From an uncultured Candidatus Saccharibacteria bacterium (lineage in GTDB: Bacteria; Patescibacteriota; Saccharimonadia; Saccharimonadales; 2-12-FULL-41-12): 64,000 bases of DNA. Each line of letters opens with the position of its first letter. Positions within the stretch are counted from its first letter, which is position 1. The position numbers were made by a program, and so were the translations under genes. A model generated the notes under the pieces. It was not told the origin of the DNA, ran no database searches, and worked only from the letters and a program-made list of their open reading frames with translations. Location: the NCBI GenBank assembly GCA_947085855.1, contig CAMTYB010000001.1:213788-277787 (forward strand), in the 5' to 3' direction. Shown here in pieces: positions 29,902 through 34,664 of this stretch.

Positions 29902-29975
29902 TAGCGCTTATGTTAACACGAAACGACTGATAATGCAAGTGCTCATAGCTCTCGCTTTTTTCCCGATGGGGAGGC

Positions 29976-31526
29976 TCAGACAACCTTGCGGATTTCGGGC
30001 GAGGCGATGTAGAGCGTTGCGGCGTCGGCCTTGATGAGTCCCTGGATGCGCGCGCTGCTCGACGCCGTGGTGCTCGCCTTCGTCGGGGTCCGCATCACGC
30101 CCTGCGGGATCGCAGACAGGAACGACGACGTGTTGGAAACCCAGAACGTCGCGGCGTAGTTAGTGCCGCCAGGCTCGATGTACTGAAGACGCAACTCCTT
30201 CACGTCCGTCCAGGTGCCCTCACCCTTGTACTCGCAACGGGCGTAGCCATGCTCACCAATGGCGAACTGGCTGGCCCGACCGAACCGGAACCAGCGAAGC
30301 TCGCAGTCCGCGCCACTACTAATGACGATCTTCCACCAGTAACCCGGCTTGCCGTCCGCGCGCGCCTCCAATGACGAGACTACAGTTCCGGTGCCGGACA
30401 CGATGTCGAGTGTATAGCCGATCGGGATGTCGCCGCTGATCGAGCCGGGGTCGCTGTTCGTGCCTCCTGCCGTCGAATGGAAGGGGCTGTACTCCACGAT
30501 GTTCTGCAAGTCCGCGCGACTGTGAAGTAGCTCGTTGACGCTGCTGACACGCGGCTCAAGCAGCGTTGCAATGATCGTCCCGATGGCGCGCGCGCCGCTC
30601 TTCGAAGGATGCAGGCTGTCGTACGTCATGCCGGTGCGTGGGGCGCCGTCGTAGTCCGCAAGGCTGCCGAAGGCGTCTACGAGCAGCATCCCATCCGTAG
30701 CCGCGACGTACTCCCTGATCCACTGATTAACGCCGTACAGAACGGCCTTCTGGCCGGTGGTCAGAGTGATGTCGGAGCGAGGCAGAATCGTGAATGCGAG
30801 GACGACCATTCCGACGGCGAGCGCCTGCTCGTACATGTATTCCAGGTCGCCGGTGATGTCCGCGATGGTGCGGTCGTCCGCCAGGTCGTTCGTCCCGCCG
30901 AAGATGCATCCGTAAGCCGCGCCTGACGCGAGGAACGGCGTGAGGCGGGCGCGAATCTCCTGCGTGTTCTCGCTTACCACGCCATCGATGTACGTCACGT
31001 CGAGACGGTCATAGAGCAGGTAGTTTGCCCACGTGAGGTAGCCGTCGTCGGGCTGCGTGTTACCGACCGCGTTACCGGACGGTTCGCAGGCCGCGGTGAT
31101 CGAGTCACCAATCGCGGCAACGGTGTTACGAGGGGCGGCAGCACCGAGCACCTGAGTAGTGCTTGCCACCACAAGCGGAGTTCCAGTATGTGCGTCTATA
31201 GCTTTTCCTGCATCGTTTGAGTCTGTGGATTTGGTAACTACTGTTGTGGGTATTTGCGCAGGAGTCAGGGTAGTACCTGTGAGACTGGCTACACCGTCGC
31301 TAACACCTTTTTGGGACGCAGGGATGGCATTGTCAGCAGCATCCAGACTAGTCTGGATTGCACCAGAGGTTTTAGCTCGAGTGACTGCATTGTCTTGTAG
31401 CTGGTTGGCGCCAACTACGTTGTCTTTAAGAGTACCAGTGTTAGTGTGAGATTGACTGAGGAAGTCGTTGAGGATGTCCCCCCAGGATCCTTGGTCACTG
31501 CCTGGAGTTGGGAGCCTGCTCGCCAT
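29976..31526 (-). CDS. SGNH/GDSL-family hydrolase with N-terminal fibre-like segment and C-terminal beta-rich domain
   Basis: SGNH blocks GDSIT (I), GGTND (III) and DSLHPS (V). N-terminal motif LPTPGSDQGSWGDILNDFL. GAGGAG SD upstream. The 3' ~1.2 kb is ~67% GC against ~46% in the flanks. Confidence 0.8.
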   Translation of the reverse strand: MASRLPTPGSDQGSWGDILNDFLSQSHTNTGTLKDNVVGANQLQDNAVTRAKTSGAIQTSLDAADNAIPASQKGVSDGVASLTGTTLTPAQIPTTVVTKSTDSNDAGKAIDAHTGTPLVVASTTQVLGAAAPRNTVAAIGDSITAACEPSGNAVGNTQPDDGYLTWANYLLYDRLDVTYIDGVVSENTQEIRARLTPFLASGAAYGCIFGGTNDLADDRTIADITGDLEYMYEQALAVGMVVLAFTILPRSDITLTTGQKAVLYGVNQWIREYVAATDGMLLVDAFGSLADYDGAPRTGMTYDSLHPSKSGARAIGTIIATLLEPRVSSVNELLHSRADLQNIVEYSPFHSTAGGTNSDPGSISGDIPIGYTLDIVSGTGTVVSSLEARADGKPGYWWKIVISSGADCELRWFRFGRASQFAIGEHGYARCEYKGEGTWTDVKELRLQYIEPGGTNYAATFWVSNTSSFLSAIPQGVMRTPTKASTTASSSARIQGLIKADAATLYIASPEIRKVV

Positions 31527-31620
31527 ACCCTACACGCTCCTCGCATTAGTACGTAAAAGCTCAATACCAGAGTGAAGATATACTCTTCGGGTTTTTATTT
31601 TATCCCTCATACTGGTTAAG

Positions 31621-31649
31621 ATTATGTGGTAGCGGTTATCTGGTGTCAA
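31621..31649 (-). promoter_or_regulatory. Sigma70-type promoter TTGACA-17-CATAAT upstream of the SGNH hydrolase gene
   Basis: Reverse-strand hexamers at 31649-31644 and 31626-31621. Confidence 0.55.
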
Positions 31650-31707
31650 GATTAAACTACGGAAGACAAAGCTGAATTGTAACCACAACGATTCCGCTAT
31701 GGACGCC

Positions 31708-33315
31708 TCAGACGAGGGTTTTGATGAAGCCGTCAAACATTGGATGCGGGCGGTTTGGACGTGACTTGAATTCTGGATGAAATTGACTGGCCAAGAAGAA
31801 TGGATGGTCAGTTCCCTCAATCACCTCTACGAGATTGTTGTCCGGATTGATGCCAGTTGGCTTGATGCCCCAACTCTCGTACTGATCTCGATAAGAGTTA
31901 TTACACTCGTAGCGGTGGCGGTGGCGTTCGACGATTTCTGGCTCACCATAAACCTTTGCAGCAAGGCTGCCGGCTTCTAGACTACAGTTGTAATTGCCAA
32001 GGCGCATGGTACCACCAGTGTTCTCTTTACCCTTCTGGCCTTCCATAGTGTGGATGACTTGATTCTTACCCTTGGCATCAAGTTCAGTAGTTGTCGCGTC
32101 AGTTACGCCGTTATTGCGAGCTGCTGCTATGACGGCCATCTGCAAACCAAGGCACAAACCAAGATACGGTAGTTTCTCTTTCAGAGCATATTGAGCGGCA
32201 GTGATTTTGCCTTCAAGGCCGCGGGTGCCAAAGCCGCCAGGCACCACTATACCGTCGCAACCCTTTAGTACCGTAGCAATATCTGCATTCGGTGCTTCAA
32301 TTTCCTCAGCTTCAATCCATTTAATGGTCAGGTTGGTATTGTTCCAAAAAGCCGCGCTACGTAGGGCTTCAAATACAGACATGTACGTATCGGTGTTATC
32401 CATGTACTTAGCGACCACACCGACGGTAACCTCTTTATCAAAAGAAGTAGTCGCCTTCTTAACCACTTCGCGCCAATCACTCAGATCAGGCTTGGTGCTG
32501 CGTTCGCTCACGCCGAGCCTGTCGGCGATAACAGTGCCGAGGCCAGAGTCTTCGAGGGTCAGCGGGACTTCGTAGATACTTTTAGCATTTGGTAGCAAGG
32601 CGATTGCTCTTGAATCCACGCCACTAAACAAGCTGAGCTTCTGGATAACACTTTCGGACGCTTGCTGCTCGCTGCGTGCCACCAAAACATCAGGAACGAT
32701 ACCGAAGCCGCGCAGCTCGCGCACTGCATTCTGAGCCGGCTTAGTCTTCACTTCCTGGCTCGCACCAAGGAATGGCAAATAGACCACATGTACAAACATG
32801 CAGTGCTCACGACCGGTGTTAAAAGCAAATTCGCGAATCGCCTCGATAAAGCTGAGACCTTCATAATCGCCGACGGTACCACCGACTTCGATAATATGAA
32901 CGTCAAAACCTTCACCGGCGCGCTTAATTTCTTCCTGCATGGCCTGCGTAACATGCGGAATGTACTGCACGGTTTTGCCGAGATATTTACCGGCTCGCTC
33001 ATCAGCTAGCACCTTAGCCAAGACGCGACCGCTCATCAATGAGCTCGCCTGCGTCAGTTCTTCATCCAAAAAGCGCTCATAATGCCCGAGGTCTAGGTCG
33101 GTCTCGGCACCGTCTCTCGTCACAAAGCACTCGCCATGCTCAGCCGGATTAAGCGTACCGGCATCAGTATTGAGGTACGGGTCACATTTTTGGAGGTTAA
33201 CAGTTAGTCCGCGGGCTTTTAGCAGACGACCAATTGAGGCGGCCGTGATACCCTTGCCAACTCCTGACAAGACACCGCCGGTAACAAAAATATACTTAGT
33301 CTGCTGTTTTCCCAC
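31708..33315 (-). CDS. pyrG: CTP synthase
   Basis: TKYIFVTGGVLSGVGKG and the glutaminase triad region GLCLGLQ...HRHRYE. GTG 33315 is preferred, with AGAGGGAG SD 8 nt upstream. The ORF track extends to 33324. Confidence 0.95.
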   Translation of the reverse strand: MGKQQTKYIFVTGGVLSGVGKGITAASIGRLLKARGLTVNLQKCDPYLNTDAGTLNPAEHGECFVTRDGAETDLDLGHYERFLDEELTQASSLMSGRVLAKVLADERAGKYLGKTVQYIPHVTQAMQEEIKRAGEGFDVHIIEVGGTVGDYEGLSFIEAIREFAFNTGREHCMFVHVVYLPFLGASQEVKTKPAQNAVRELRGFGIVPDVLVARSEQQASESVIQKLSLFSGVDSRAIALLPNAKSIYEVPLTLEDSGLGTVIADRLGVSERSTKPDLSDWREVVKKATTSFDKEVTVGVVAKYMDNTDTYMSVFEALRSAAFWNNTNLTIKWIEAEEIEAPNADIATVLKGCDGIVVPGGFGTRGLEGKITAAQYALKEKLPYLGLCLGLQMAVIAAARNNGVTDATTTELDAKGKNQVIHTMEGQKGKENTGGTMRLGNYNCSLEAGSLAAKVYGEPEIVERHRHRYECNNSYRDQYESWGIKPTGINPDNNLVEVIEGTDHPFFLASQFHPEFKSRPNRPHPMFDGFIKTLV

Positions 33316-33377
33316 GCAGAACACTCCCTCTTCTCGTTTACTGACTGATTTTACCCTATTTTGCCGCTGTTGACCAG

Positions 33378-34664
33378 CTACTGTTTGAGCTTATTGATCG
33401 CAGCATCCTTCTGCGTGTCTCGCTTGGCAGCGACATCGGCATCACTGATTTCAACCTTCTGATCGGGCTCAATGCCCTCTTTATCGATGTTGCGGCCACT
33501 CGGCGTAAACCAGCGGGCAATCGTTACTTTCAGGCTGCCACCATCTTTGAGCTCGCGAATCTCCTGCACGCTGCCCTTACCATAGGTTTTGACACCAATA
33601 ATAGTAGCTACTTTGTTGTCTTTTAGGGCACCAGCCGTGATCTCACTGGCACTAGCGCTACCATTGTCTACTAAGACCACTGTCGGCACGCCTAACAACG
33701 TGGCGTCACCTTTAGCTCGATAGGTCTTTATGAGTTTGTTATCGCGTTTTTCTTCAAGGATAGTCTTGTCGTCCGACAACCACAGACTGGAAAGATTTAC
33801 CGAAGCATCCAGCAATCCACCGGGGTTACCGCGAAGATCGAGTACGACGCCACGGACGTTCTTAGTCTTAAACTCGGTAGCTGCTTGCTGGGCTAGTTCG
33901 GGTGTATCTTCGCTAAAACGACTAATTGTCATTACGCCGATGTTTTCTGGAGTCACCTCCCATTTAACGCTAGGCGTCGTGATTTGCTCGCGCGTAATCT
34001 CAAAGCTCAGTGGCTTGCCATCGCGAATGATGTCCAGTTTTACCTGCGTACCTTTTGGCCCACGAATCTGTTTGACCGCCTCTGTAACGCTTATGTCATA
34101 GGCACTGTTGCCATTGATCTTACTGATGATATCTTTAGCCTTGAGGCCAGCGCGCTCAGCCGGAAAACCAGCAATTGGCGCCACCACTATAATAGCGTCA
34201 CCCTCTTTACTCAATTCGGCACCAATACCTTCAAAGGAGCCGCTGAGCGCCTCATTAAACTCTCGGCTCTCTTCAGCCGTAAAATACTCGGTATACTGAT
34301 CGCCGGCAGCCTCAACCAAGCCTTTTTTCATGCCATCTTCTAGCTTCTGCTTGTCCAACTGCCCATCAAAACTGATCTTCAAGTCTTCATATAACTGATC
34401 GATACCGCTAAAACTGAGTCGTCCGGGGTCATTGTCCTGAATTGAACGCCGAAAGCCGGCGTCCGAACCAAAAGCAACCGTACCGTTACCAATACCCACG
34501 CCCAGAAATAATACTCCGGCCATTAGTACTGCCAGCCCGGTAATCCGCAGGCCGCTCATGGCGCGAGGATTGCGCTTTATGTTTTGCATGAACCCGCTGA
34601 GTCCTCGTTTATTTGTTTTAGCTGTTGATCTAACTGGCAATTTGCCATGCGGTGACTGAGACAA
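33378..34664 (-). CDS. C-terminal processing (S41) peptidase with PDZ domain
   Basis: LDLRGNPGGLL, catalytic GSASASEI and KTYGKGSVQ. N-terminal TM. TTG start preceded by AAAAGGGG. Confidence 0.85.
   Translation of the reverse strand: MSQSPHGKLPVRSTAKTNKRGLSGFMQNIKRNPRAMSGLRITGLAVLMAGVLFLGVGIGNGTVAFGSDAGFRRSIQDNDPGRLSFSGIDQLYEDLKISFDGQLDKQKLEDGMKKGLVEAAGDQYTEYFTAEESREFNEALSGSFEGIGAELSKEGDAIIVVAPIAGFPAERAGLKAKDIISKINGNSAYDISVTEAVKQIRGPKGTQVKLDIIRDGKPLSFEITREQITTPSVKWEVTPENIGVMTISRFSEDTPELAQQAATEFKTKNVRGVVLDLRGNPGGLLDASVNLSSLWLSDDKTILEEKRDNKLIKTYRAKGDATLLGVPTVVLVDNGSASASEITAGALKDNKVATIIGVKTYGKGSVQEIRELKDGGSLKVTIARWFTPSGRNIDKEGIEPDQKVEISDADVAAKRDTQKDAAINKLKQ

Follow-up and report, generated by a model that had tools for sequence, protein, structure and literature searches.

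The subject of this study is a single open reading frame (ORF) in a 64,000-nucleotide stretch of contig CAMTYB010000001.1 from an uncultured Candidatus Saccharibacteria bacterium, the whole of which is referred to here as the window. The ORF encodes a 516-residue protein made up of an N-terminal module (the N-module), a short linker, an SGNH esterase domain and a C-terminal beta domain (Table 1), and its base composition changes abruptly part of the way along the reading frame. The 1-kb bin from 30001 to 31000 has a GC content of 0.633, compared with a window mean of 0.481 and at most 0.523 in every other 1-kb bin. GC content at third codon positions (GC3) rises from the N-module through the linker to 0.83 over codons 141-516, and the shift in GC falls almost wholly at third positions. 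The maximum-likelihood GC3 change-point lies at about codons 133-140 (window ~31106-31127), within a likelihood peak over codons 133-142, and has a log-likelihood ratio (LLR) of 35.3, when the maxima reached by two sets of controls, 2000 permutations of the codons within the ORF and the 28 other long ORFs of the window, were 11.0 and 7.7, respectively. GC3 in 49 other window ORFs is 0.49 +/- 0.05, and the maximum among 278 background windows of 100 codons is 0.65. The composition step within this ORF is thereby confirmed and lies far outside chance. A second boundary follows no more than ~18 nt past the stop codon, and homology to the empty sites of the relatives described below resumes at ~29958.

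An earlier interpretation made from the letters of this DNA alone (the sequence-only reading) had reported, from hand counts, a GC jump inside the reading frame and another near the stop codon. Both are borne out by the computed profile, in which GC3 is not uniform along the ORF but steps from 0.43 to 0.83. The motifs it named are also present, namely GDSIT at residues 140-144, GGTND at 210-214, DSLHPS at 303-308 and the N-terminal peptide LPTPGSDQGSWGDILNDFL at residues 5-23. An identical 516-residue protein is encoded both on an 817,656-bp NCBI contig and in the Logan assembly of ERR4904396. No paralog of either half of the ORF was found elsewhere in the 64-kb window, and no Rfam family (tRNA included) reached its gathering score anywhere in positions 1-64000.

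Table 1. Features of the mosaic gene in the window, followed by loci on other contigs in which an N-module gene adjoins a prepilin-like gene.
Feature	Coordinates	Strand	Basis
Inserted segment specific to the strain, from the promoter region through the whole gene to a few nucleotides past the stop	29960..31709	-	Empty sites in relatives
ORF, 516 aa: N-module + SGNH esterase + beta domain	29976..31526	-	Stop codon 29976-29978
C-terminal all-beta domain resembling carbohydrate-binding modules (CBM), residues ~331-516, high GC	29979..30536	-	AlphaFold2 (AF2) model, Foldseek, family conservation
SGNH/GDSL esterase domain, residues ~136-330, high GC	30537..31121	-	Pfam, invariant residues, AF2 model
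Junction/linker with the crossover, codons 122-140, GC3 0.53	31107..31163	-	GC3 string, change-point, end of homology
N-module, codons 1-121, GC3 0.43	31164..31526	-	Conserved head of a Saccharibacteria tail-fiber-like family
Sigma-70-like promoter TTGACA-17-CATAAT, within the insert	31621..31649	-	Matches 11/12 positions
Prepilin-adjacent N-module locus, Planctomonas deserti	L059 4921-8209		
Prepilin-adjacent N-module locus, Microbacterium metagenome-assembled genome (MAG)	L078 2240-9420		
Prepilin-adjacent N-module locus, Galbitalea MAG	L037 ~8862		

The high-GC part of the ORF, hereafter the block, matches the Pfam family Lipase_GDSL_2 (PF13472) over residues 138-314 with 71.5 bits against a cutoff of 32.9. 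When it is aligned with 15 relatives (16 sequences in all), the nucleophile Ser142 of GDSIT (31101-31103), the oxyanion-hole residues Gly182 (30981-30983) and Asn213 of GGTND (30888-30890), and the catalytic triad residues Asp303 (30618-30620) and His306 (30609-30611) of DSLHPS are all invariant. The AF2 model of residues 126-516 (pLDDT 81, pTM 0.82) has two parts, an SGNH domain of alpha/beta fold and, after it, ~180 residues that form an all-beta domain with about 12 strands. Pfam, alignment and model therefore agree with the sequence-only reading, which had described SGNH catalytic blocks and a beta-rich C-terminal domain of ~180 residues in the high-GC part. Judged by its sequence and predicted fold, the block is a member of the SGNH/GDSL hydrolase superfamily with its catalytic residues intact, and a predicted esterase.

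Structural comparison with Foldseek matched the SGNH part to GDSL lipases and O-acetylesterases (TMt 0.70-0.85), with GDSL acylhydrolases, sialate O-acetylesterases and acetylxylan esterases among the solved structures it resembles, and the beta domain to the CBM70 hyaluronan-binding module 4d0q and to tailspike 4 (TSP4) of phage CBA120. Among predicted viral structures, the whole block matched a GDSL lipase of a Pseudomonas phage (TM 0.87), gp21 of Rhodococcus phage ReqiPine5 (TM 0.82), the esterases of Gordonia phage Lambo (TM 0.79) and Microbacterium phage Shocker (TM 0.73), and a Vibrio phage tail fiber (TM 0.72). The ReqiPine5 gene stands in the virion structural gene block, between the head-morphogenesis genes and the tape-measure gene, and the gene for P0005, one of the nearest sequence relatives of the block, comes right after a P22-type portal gene. 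The block also matches phrog_6102 (E 4.9e-30). An exhaustive search of 1.84e9 representatives yielded a block family of 2124 members, many of them aligned end to end (block residues 1-390), and the SGNH and beta domains therefore form an established unit. This two-domain unit is common in phages. The beta domain is conserved across the family and ends in the motif ...GVxRTP...RKV.

The low-GC head of the protein is related to a separate set of genes. P0040, P0041 and P0002-P0004 have N-termini that share 60-76% identity with residues 1-121, and R4, L5, P6, G9, D11, W15, G16, I18, L19, N20, L23 and G31 are invariant in 35 N-module proteins. A scan of one genome per GTDB species returned 166 relatives, of which the best 80 are almost all from Saccharibacteria, with five from Actinomycetota. 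Saccharibacteria genomes of ~1 Mb often carry 3-5 copies at scattered housekeeping sites. The C-terminal cassettes that follow the N-module are diverse and include a pectate-lyase-like beta-helix, polysaccharide deacetylase, glycerophosphodiester phosphodiesterase (GDPD), the C-domain of K1-capsule lyase, CBM5/12, collagen repeats and other SGNH esterases. Relatives of the N-module give stronger PHROG matches than the window copy does, to tail-fiber and minor-tail families, and residues 1-34 of the window protein are 59% identical to gp186 of Streptomyces phage BRock (E 1e-5), a gene outside the tail module. Relative synonymous codon usage (RSCU) over the 121 codons of the N-module was uninformative, with r about 0 against every reference, and it is therefore called native on the strength of its GC3 and of its homologs among other Saccharibacteria genes. 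Named Saccharibacteria MAG loci share synteny with the window, and protein identity with its housekeeping genes is 56-66%. The native N-terminus of the sequence-only reading is thus sustained in part: the module is Saccharibacteria-wide and native-like in GC3, but the whole gene, N-module included, was inserted at this site.

Evidence for the insertion comes from three relatives that are collinear with the window and have an empty site. These are L087 (window nucleotide identity 92%, pyrG identity 0.937), L099 (89% and 0.886) and L098 (80-85% and 0.848), and in all three the gap between pyrG and the response-regulator gene is only 59-84 nt. Homology to them ends at the pyrG stop codon (31710) and picks up again at the far boundary given above. 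By pyrG identity the window has L087 as its sister, and L099 and L098 fall outside this pair, so the empty site is ancestral; the segment is, as judged by sequence comparison, an insertion that followed the split from L087. Its contents are the promoter region (183 bp, low in GC), N-module and high-GC block, and ~35 nt of ancestral spacer were lost. The ends at 29960 and 31709 have no terminal repeats, direct or inverted, and there is no transposase within the insert. The predicted promoter recognized by the sequence-only reading as the gene's own stands at 31649-31621 on the minus strand, and 32 nt around its -10 box (31625-31594) are 91% identical to the region upstream of P0040 (L005), which makes promoter and N-module a family unit. 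A contig from ERR3478710, a sample that also contains P0040, is 100% identical over the last 42 nt of the gene and the spacer. As the whole gene and its promoter are absent from three syntenic relatives, the fusion was probably not made on a gene already resident at this site. Most probably the fusion was assembled elsewhere and then placed at the pyrG site, the alternative being two quick steps there.

DNA and protein homology among N-modules ends at 31162-31177 (codon ~121), which is where GC3 begins to rise, and the same junction is found in two other members of the closest N-module subgroup, with different content downstream. In P0004 (L003), GC3 goes from 0.41 to 0.85 at codon 118 (LLR 45), and the downstream part encodes a different esterase. 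In P0040 (L005), a step at codon 130 is followed by two genes with GC3 of 0.75 and 0.71, in a genome of ~0.41. The RSCU of these high-GC parts correlates with that of high-GC contigs at r = 0.93 for P0004 and 0.90 for P0040; no relatives that could be their donors were found in IMG/VR or in the loci examined. Among ~85 N-module genes surveyed, all but the step-bearing members are uniform in composition. High-GC capture is uncommon in the N-module family, yet recurrent at the same junction. The block of P0004 was also considered as a second close link to a donor and was rejected, as it is near-identical to the L009 gene (see below) at the junction motif but only 26-30% identical overall.

The search for a donor covered a 5.8e9-cluster database (queried with the whole protein and with the block alone), the exhaustive set of 1.84e9 representatives, JGI metagenome contigs and IMG/VR. 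Among ~15 billion proteins the block had a single close relative. In the 5.8e9-cluster database the whole 516-residue protein had no relative but itself. The sole block relative above 40% identity among the 1.84e9 cluster representatives was P0074, a fragment of 86 residues encoded on contig L095, which is 58-69% GC throughout its 8.7 kb (uniformly ~65%). The block copy on L095 has decayed: amino acid identity is 85% over residues 186-295 and, after a frameshift, 73% over 297-340, residues 341-472 are deleted, and identity is 93% over residues 473-515. At the DNA level the copy is 80% and 92% identical to the block in two segments, with identities by codon position of 0.86/0.91/0.63 in one segment and 1.0/1.0/0.76 in the other. 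The concentration of differences at third positions indicates that the L095 copy was under purifying selection until recently. As it stands (L095 1-722), this cousin of the esterase block is a pseudogene without the first ~185 residues, the catalytic Ser among them, and with ~130 residues of the beta domain lost. The cassette lineage is being lost in the high-GC lineage and is intact in the Saccharibacterium.

The L095 methyltransferase shares a cluster of at least 90% identity with MBJ7519101.1, from a MAG of the Solirubrobacteraceae (Actinomycetota, class Thermoleophilia), and L095 is 83% identical in nucleotides over 4.3 kb to the 88-kb MAG contig JAEMQS010000011.1 (locus L009). This contig is, independently, the second-best genome match of the N-module, and one of its genes, at 65% GC, codes for 570 aa with an N-module and an SGNH-type esterase. 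Moreover, the RSCU of the block correlates at 0.89 with the genes of L009 and L095 and at 0.29 with those of the window. L095 has no DNA match among known phages and only methyltransferase-level matches among plasmids. Differences between the block and L095 were AT-ward in 39 versus 25 cases, a polarity of amelioration that is not significant (p=0.10). With one close relative and all others at most 37% identical, a gene tree would not resolve the donor. Transfer of the block from a high-GC donor is strongly supported, and both the direction, from a high-GC lineage to the Saccharibacterium, and the actinobacterial kind of donor are supported, the exact donor being unsampled. The sequence-only reading had proposed that an esterase module was recently acquired from a high-GC donor, and composition, codon usage, three empty syntenic sites and a cousin at 65% GC all speak for it; its further suggestion, a donor from the host phylum, gains from the link between the cousin's contig and a Solirubrobacteraceae MAG. 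A search with the block alone, which it had also proposed, gave the cousin but no intact donor gene.

We consider it highly probable that the gene has a history of transfer and mosaic assembly. In this history the 5' part (promoter and codons 1-121) is a copy of the conserved N-module that heads a multi-copy, tail-fiber-like family in Saccharibacteria, and the 3' part (codons ~125-516) is a phage-type cassette captured from a high-GC actinobacterial lineage or from its mobile elements or phages. The two parts recombined at the 3' edge of the N-module, and the finished gene was inserted between pyrG and the response-regulator gene after the split from the closest sampled relative. What the data establish is that the gene is a mosaic and an insertion, that its block is of foreign, high-GC origin with intact catalytic residues, and that the cassettes of the N-module family are diverse. 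We propose that the N-module would serve as a common attachment or assembly end, in the manner of the N-terminal domain of phage receptor-binding proteins, that the beta domain would hold on to a glycan of the cell envelope, and that the esterase would strip O-acyl (probably acetyl) groups from this glycan on a partner (host) cell, as phage receptor-binding proteins of the SGNH type do. This function, a glycan-binding esterase that deacylates the envelope of a partner, is drawn by analogy and is put forward tentatively, at somewhat less than an even chance; history and function stated together we favor by a narrow margin.

Saccharibacteria parasitize Actinobacteria. As the cassette comes from the parasitized phylum, and is of a type that phages use to recognize the surface of that phylum, host targeting is the most economical reading. 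It would have the protein exported to the cell surface, with a substrate and a role at the partner's envelope, and the donor may then have been the host. A broader proposal, which we regard as doubtful, is that the Saccharibacteria tail-fiber-like family as a whole consists of host-surface-targeting devices, their specificity renewed by grafting ready-made receptor-binding or enzyme cassettes, from the DNA of actinobacterial hosts or of prophages in those hosts, onto a constant head at a fixed junction. The window gene would be a fresh example, and the origin of its cassette would point to a Solirubrobacterales-like actinobacterium as the host.

Several observations weigh against this picture. 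The PHROG matches of the N-module itself are weak (phrog_1446, E 1.3e-3; phrog_892, E 4.8e-3), although they are to tail proteins and to that degree agree with the resemblance to phage fiber N-termini that the sequence-only reading had remarked on. The AF2 model of the N-module is extended and unreliable (pTM 0.31) and was left out of the fold search, and neither a signal peptide nor a transmembrane segment was found in the 516-residue protein. None of the 148 closest block-family representatives carries an N-module, so the pairing of head and cassette is new and gives no sign of a homology-guided swap. There was no intact close donor of the block, as nothing in the searched databases exceeded ~37% identity except the fragment P0074, and a third-codon identity of only 0.63-0.76 makes L095 a cousin and not the donor. 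Lastly, the assignment of L095 to Actinomycetota hangs on its similarity to one MAG contig, itself perhaps a mobile element placed in the wrong bin.

Of the other ways to account for the gene, the most probable sees in it a stray from a Saccharibacteria phage, a gene for a tail fiber or receptor-binding protein that persists as a remnant or moron and does nothing for the cell, and whose mosaic structure arose by phage-phage recombination, for example between phages that contact both Saccharibacteria and Actinobacteria. The PHROG tail-fiber and minor-tail matches of the N-module and its relatives would suit this account, as would the phage esterases that are the block's best matches in sequence and structure and the portal gene beside P0005; furthermore, CRISPR spacers of Actinobacteria target some Saccharibacteria phages (PMC10746230). 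Yet phage morphogenesis, integrase and lysis genes were found neither within +/-10 kb of the ORF nor at four other annotated Saccharibacteria loci. One gene under its own predicted promoter makes up the insert, which lacks att-like repeats; reading frame and catalytic residues are both intact, and the family is present in several copies at scattered housekeeping sites of ~1-Mb genomes. We therefore judge a purely viral gene to be rather improbable. Somewhat less probable again is an esterase for nutrient scavenging or for metabolism of the cell's own envelope, acting on imported or self glycans or lipids with no host target, in which case the N-module would be incidental. That the whole two-domain block is a unit of phage-virion type does not sit well with such a role, and elsewhere the N-module is joined only to cassettes that are fiber-like or active on envelope polymers; strain-level presence and absence would also suit an interaction gene better than core metabolism. 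The great functional breadth of SGNH enzymes, the generic GDSL acylhydrolases, sialate O-acetylesterases and acetylxylan esterases among the nearest solved structures, and the lack of a signal peptide are nonetheless what a scavenging enzyme would lead one to expect.

Two further accounts dispense with the transfer itself. A chimeric assembly or binning error that joined Saccharibacteria and actinobacterial reads could produce a composition step, the data are metagenome-derived, and the ERR3478710 contig breaks 42 nt inside the 3' end of the gene. We hold such an artifact to be very unlikely, as the 516-codon frame is kept across a join that falls at a domain boundary, the 817-kb NCBI contig and a Logan assembly made independently both encode the identical protein, the high-GC 3' end runs straight on into the native spacer and response-regulator gene at 100% identity in a second sample, and a like step occurs in two unrelated samples. 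Endogenous high GC3, produced by codon-usage selection or biased gene conversion in a gene long resident here, has nothing beyond its general possibility to commend it, is contradicted by the data and seems to us the least credible of all: the gene is absent from three syntenic relatives, the codon usage of the block fits high-GC contigs, its close cousin lies on a uniformly 65%-GC contig, and the step coincides with the end of N-module homology.

The mosaic gene we propose resembles several known systems in part. Phage receptor-binding proteins of the SGNH type deacetylate surface polysaccharides, as in gp63.1 of phage G7C and the tail fibers of Klebsiella prophages, which are active esterases (PMC13123978). 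When set beside E. coli phage G7C gp63.1, the Klebsiella prophage fibers, ReqiPine5 gp21, the esterase/lipase proteins of Gordonia phages Ranch and Lambo and phrog_6102, the window protein has the same order of SGNH domain and beta-sandwich (whole-block TM 0.72-0.87), 25-28% sequence identity over residues ~130-480, and a similar succession of fiber-like N-terminal part and enzyme. It differs from them in that its gene is chromosomal in a Saccharibacterium with no phage genes around it, its N-module is found almost only in Saccharibacteria, and its esterase role is a prediction from sequence. Phage fibers and tailspikes are built from a conserved N-terminal attachment domain and exchangeable catalytic modules (PMC5380687). 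The modular exchange seen in P22/Sf6/HK620/CUS-3, K1F and the tailocin fibers of Pectobacterium carotovoricin likewise combines a constant N-terminal domain with unrelated C-terminal enzymes at a fixed junction, and the split P0040 and P0041 genes, each a short "adapter" ORF followed by a large ORF, recall adapter-plus-tailspike systems (PMC5380687, PMC13195805). In the window, by contrast, the exchange is between phyla: high-GC DNA of Actinomycetota-like character has entered a Saccharibacterium of 48% GC and has left a step that is unameliorated. No virion or tailocin cluster accompanies the gene, and the block relatives give no sign of a homology-guided crossover.

Polymorphic toxin systems (PMC3482391) and other cassette-swapping surface proteins also have a constant head, which serves in trafficking, and C-terminal cassettes diversified by recombination. 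The cassettes of the N-module family differ in being glycan-active or esterase enzymes and not toxins, and the immunity genes, stand-alone cassette arrays and known secretion-system domains of those systems were not seen here. The acquisition of the arginine deiminase system by Saccharibacteria (PMC8764695) is a precedent for a foreign, perhaps adaptive, gene in an epibiont with a reduced genome. The present case differs in that foreign DNA makes up only part of the gene and continues the frame of a resident module, and in that the donor lineage is apparently of the host phylum.

There are precedents, then, for receptor-binding proteins that are mosaic, for SGNH esterases in phages and for Saccharibacteria that acquire genes. 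What is new is the setting, a chromosomal, non-prophage gene family in an epibiont of the candidate phyla radiation (CPR), together with a partial-gene capture between phyla whose in-frame step is still unameliorated, the repetition of such capture at one junction, and a donor-like relative in Actinomycetota. No description of the N-module family was found in the searchable literature. To our knowledge, host-surface recognition by ultrasmall epibionts (Saccharibacteria/CPR) is largely unexplained beyond type IV pili, and we know of hosts for few of the environmental Saccharibacteria lineages. If the family does comprise surface devices with host-derived cassettes, its members would be concrete candidates for host interaction that can be tested, hosts of uncultured Saccharibacteria could be predicted from sequence alone by way of each cassette's composition and closest relatives, and the cassette-swapping logic of phage receptor-binding proteins would operate across phyla in a cellular parasite. 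Even a conservative reading leaves a recent partial-gene transfer between phyla with defined insertion boundaries and three empty-site controls.

The surroundings of other N-module genes provide some further observations. In L005 (10001-12842, P0040) and L006 (10001-12706, P0041) the architecture is split, with an N-module ORF of 170-175 aa that ends in a ...GD(L/I)W...T motif and is followed at once by a large PKD/beta-helix-like ORF; the downstream genes are high-GC in L005 (GC3 0.71-0.75) and of native composition in L006. A small XRE/HTH_3 regulator is encoded divergently just upstream of the N-module gene in L003 (4693-4920) and L005 (9523-9738), is absent at the window copy, and may be a dedicated regulator of the family. 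The P0040 locus (L005 5679-9526) adjoins an OLD-family nuclease (AAA_15/TOPRIM), a DUF2130 gene and a PLD-like gene, and looks like a defense-island context. At three of the five actinobacterial loci (Table 1), the N-module gene adjoins one with a type-IV-prepilin-like N-terminus (e.g. RRGFTIVELL), and no head or packaging genes lie nearby at these three. Such a neighbor is present at 4 of 74 Saccharibacteria loci. A pilus association of the N-module family is possible in Microbacteriaceae; as a general feature of the family it was rejected, being seen at only 7 of 79 loci.

Within the window, the genes run in the order SecA, M16 peptidase, release factor, FtsEX, CHAP, S41 peptidase, pyrG, the ORF, response regulator, hypothetical, L27 and methyltransferase. 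The orphan CheY-like regulator noted beside the ORF by the sequence-only reading is a 130-aa Response_reg (receiver domain) protein. No terminator-like site was found on the minus strand in the 29902-29975 interval between the two genes, and the insert's predicted promoter may read through into the response-regulator gene, which directly follows pyrG in the relatives. The S41 peptidase gene (33378-34664) and pyrG (31708-33324) flank a second strain-variable slot, at 1.6 kb from the first. This slot holds only 14 bp in the window (33364-33377), an ORF of 385 aa with no Pfam match and a native GC3 of 0.42 in L087 (11230-12387), ORFs of 381 and 214 aa in L098 (4130-5925), and ORFs of 205 and 133 aa in L099 (4083-5232). 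Both sides of pyrG are therefore hot spots of gene gain and loss in this lineage.

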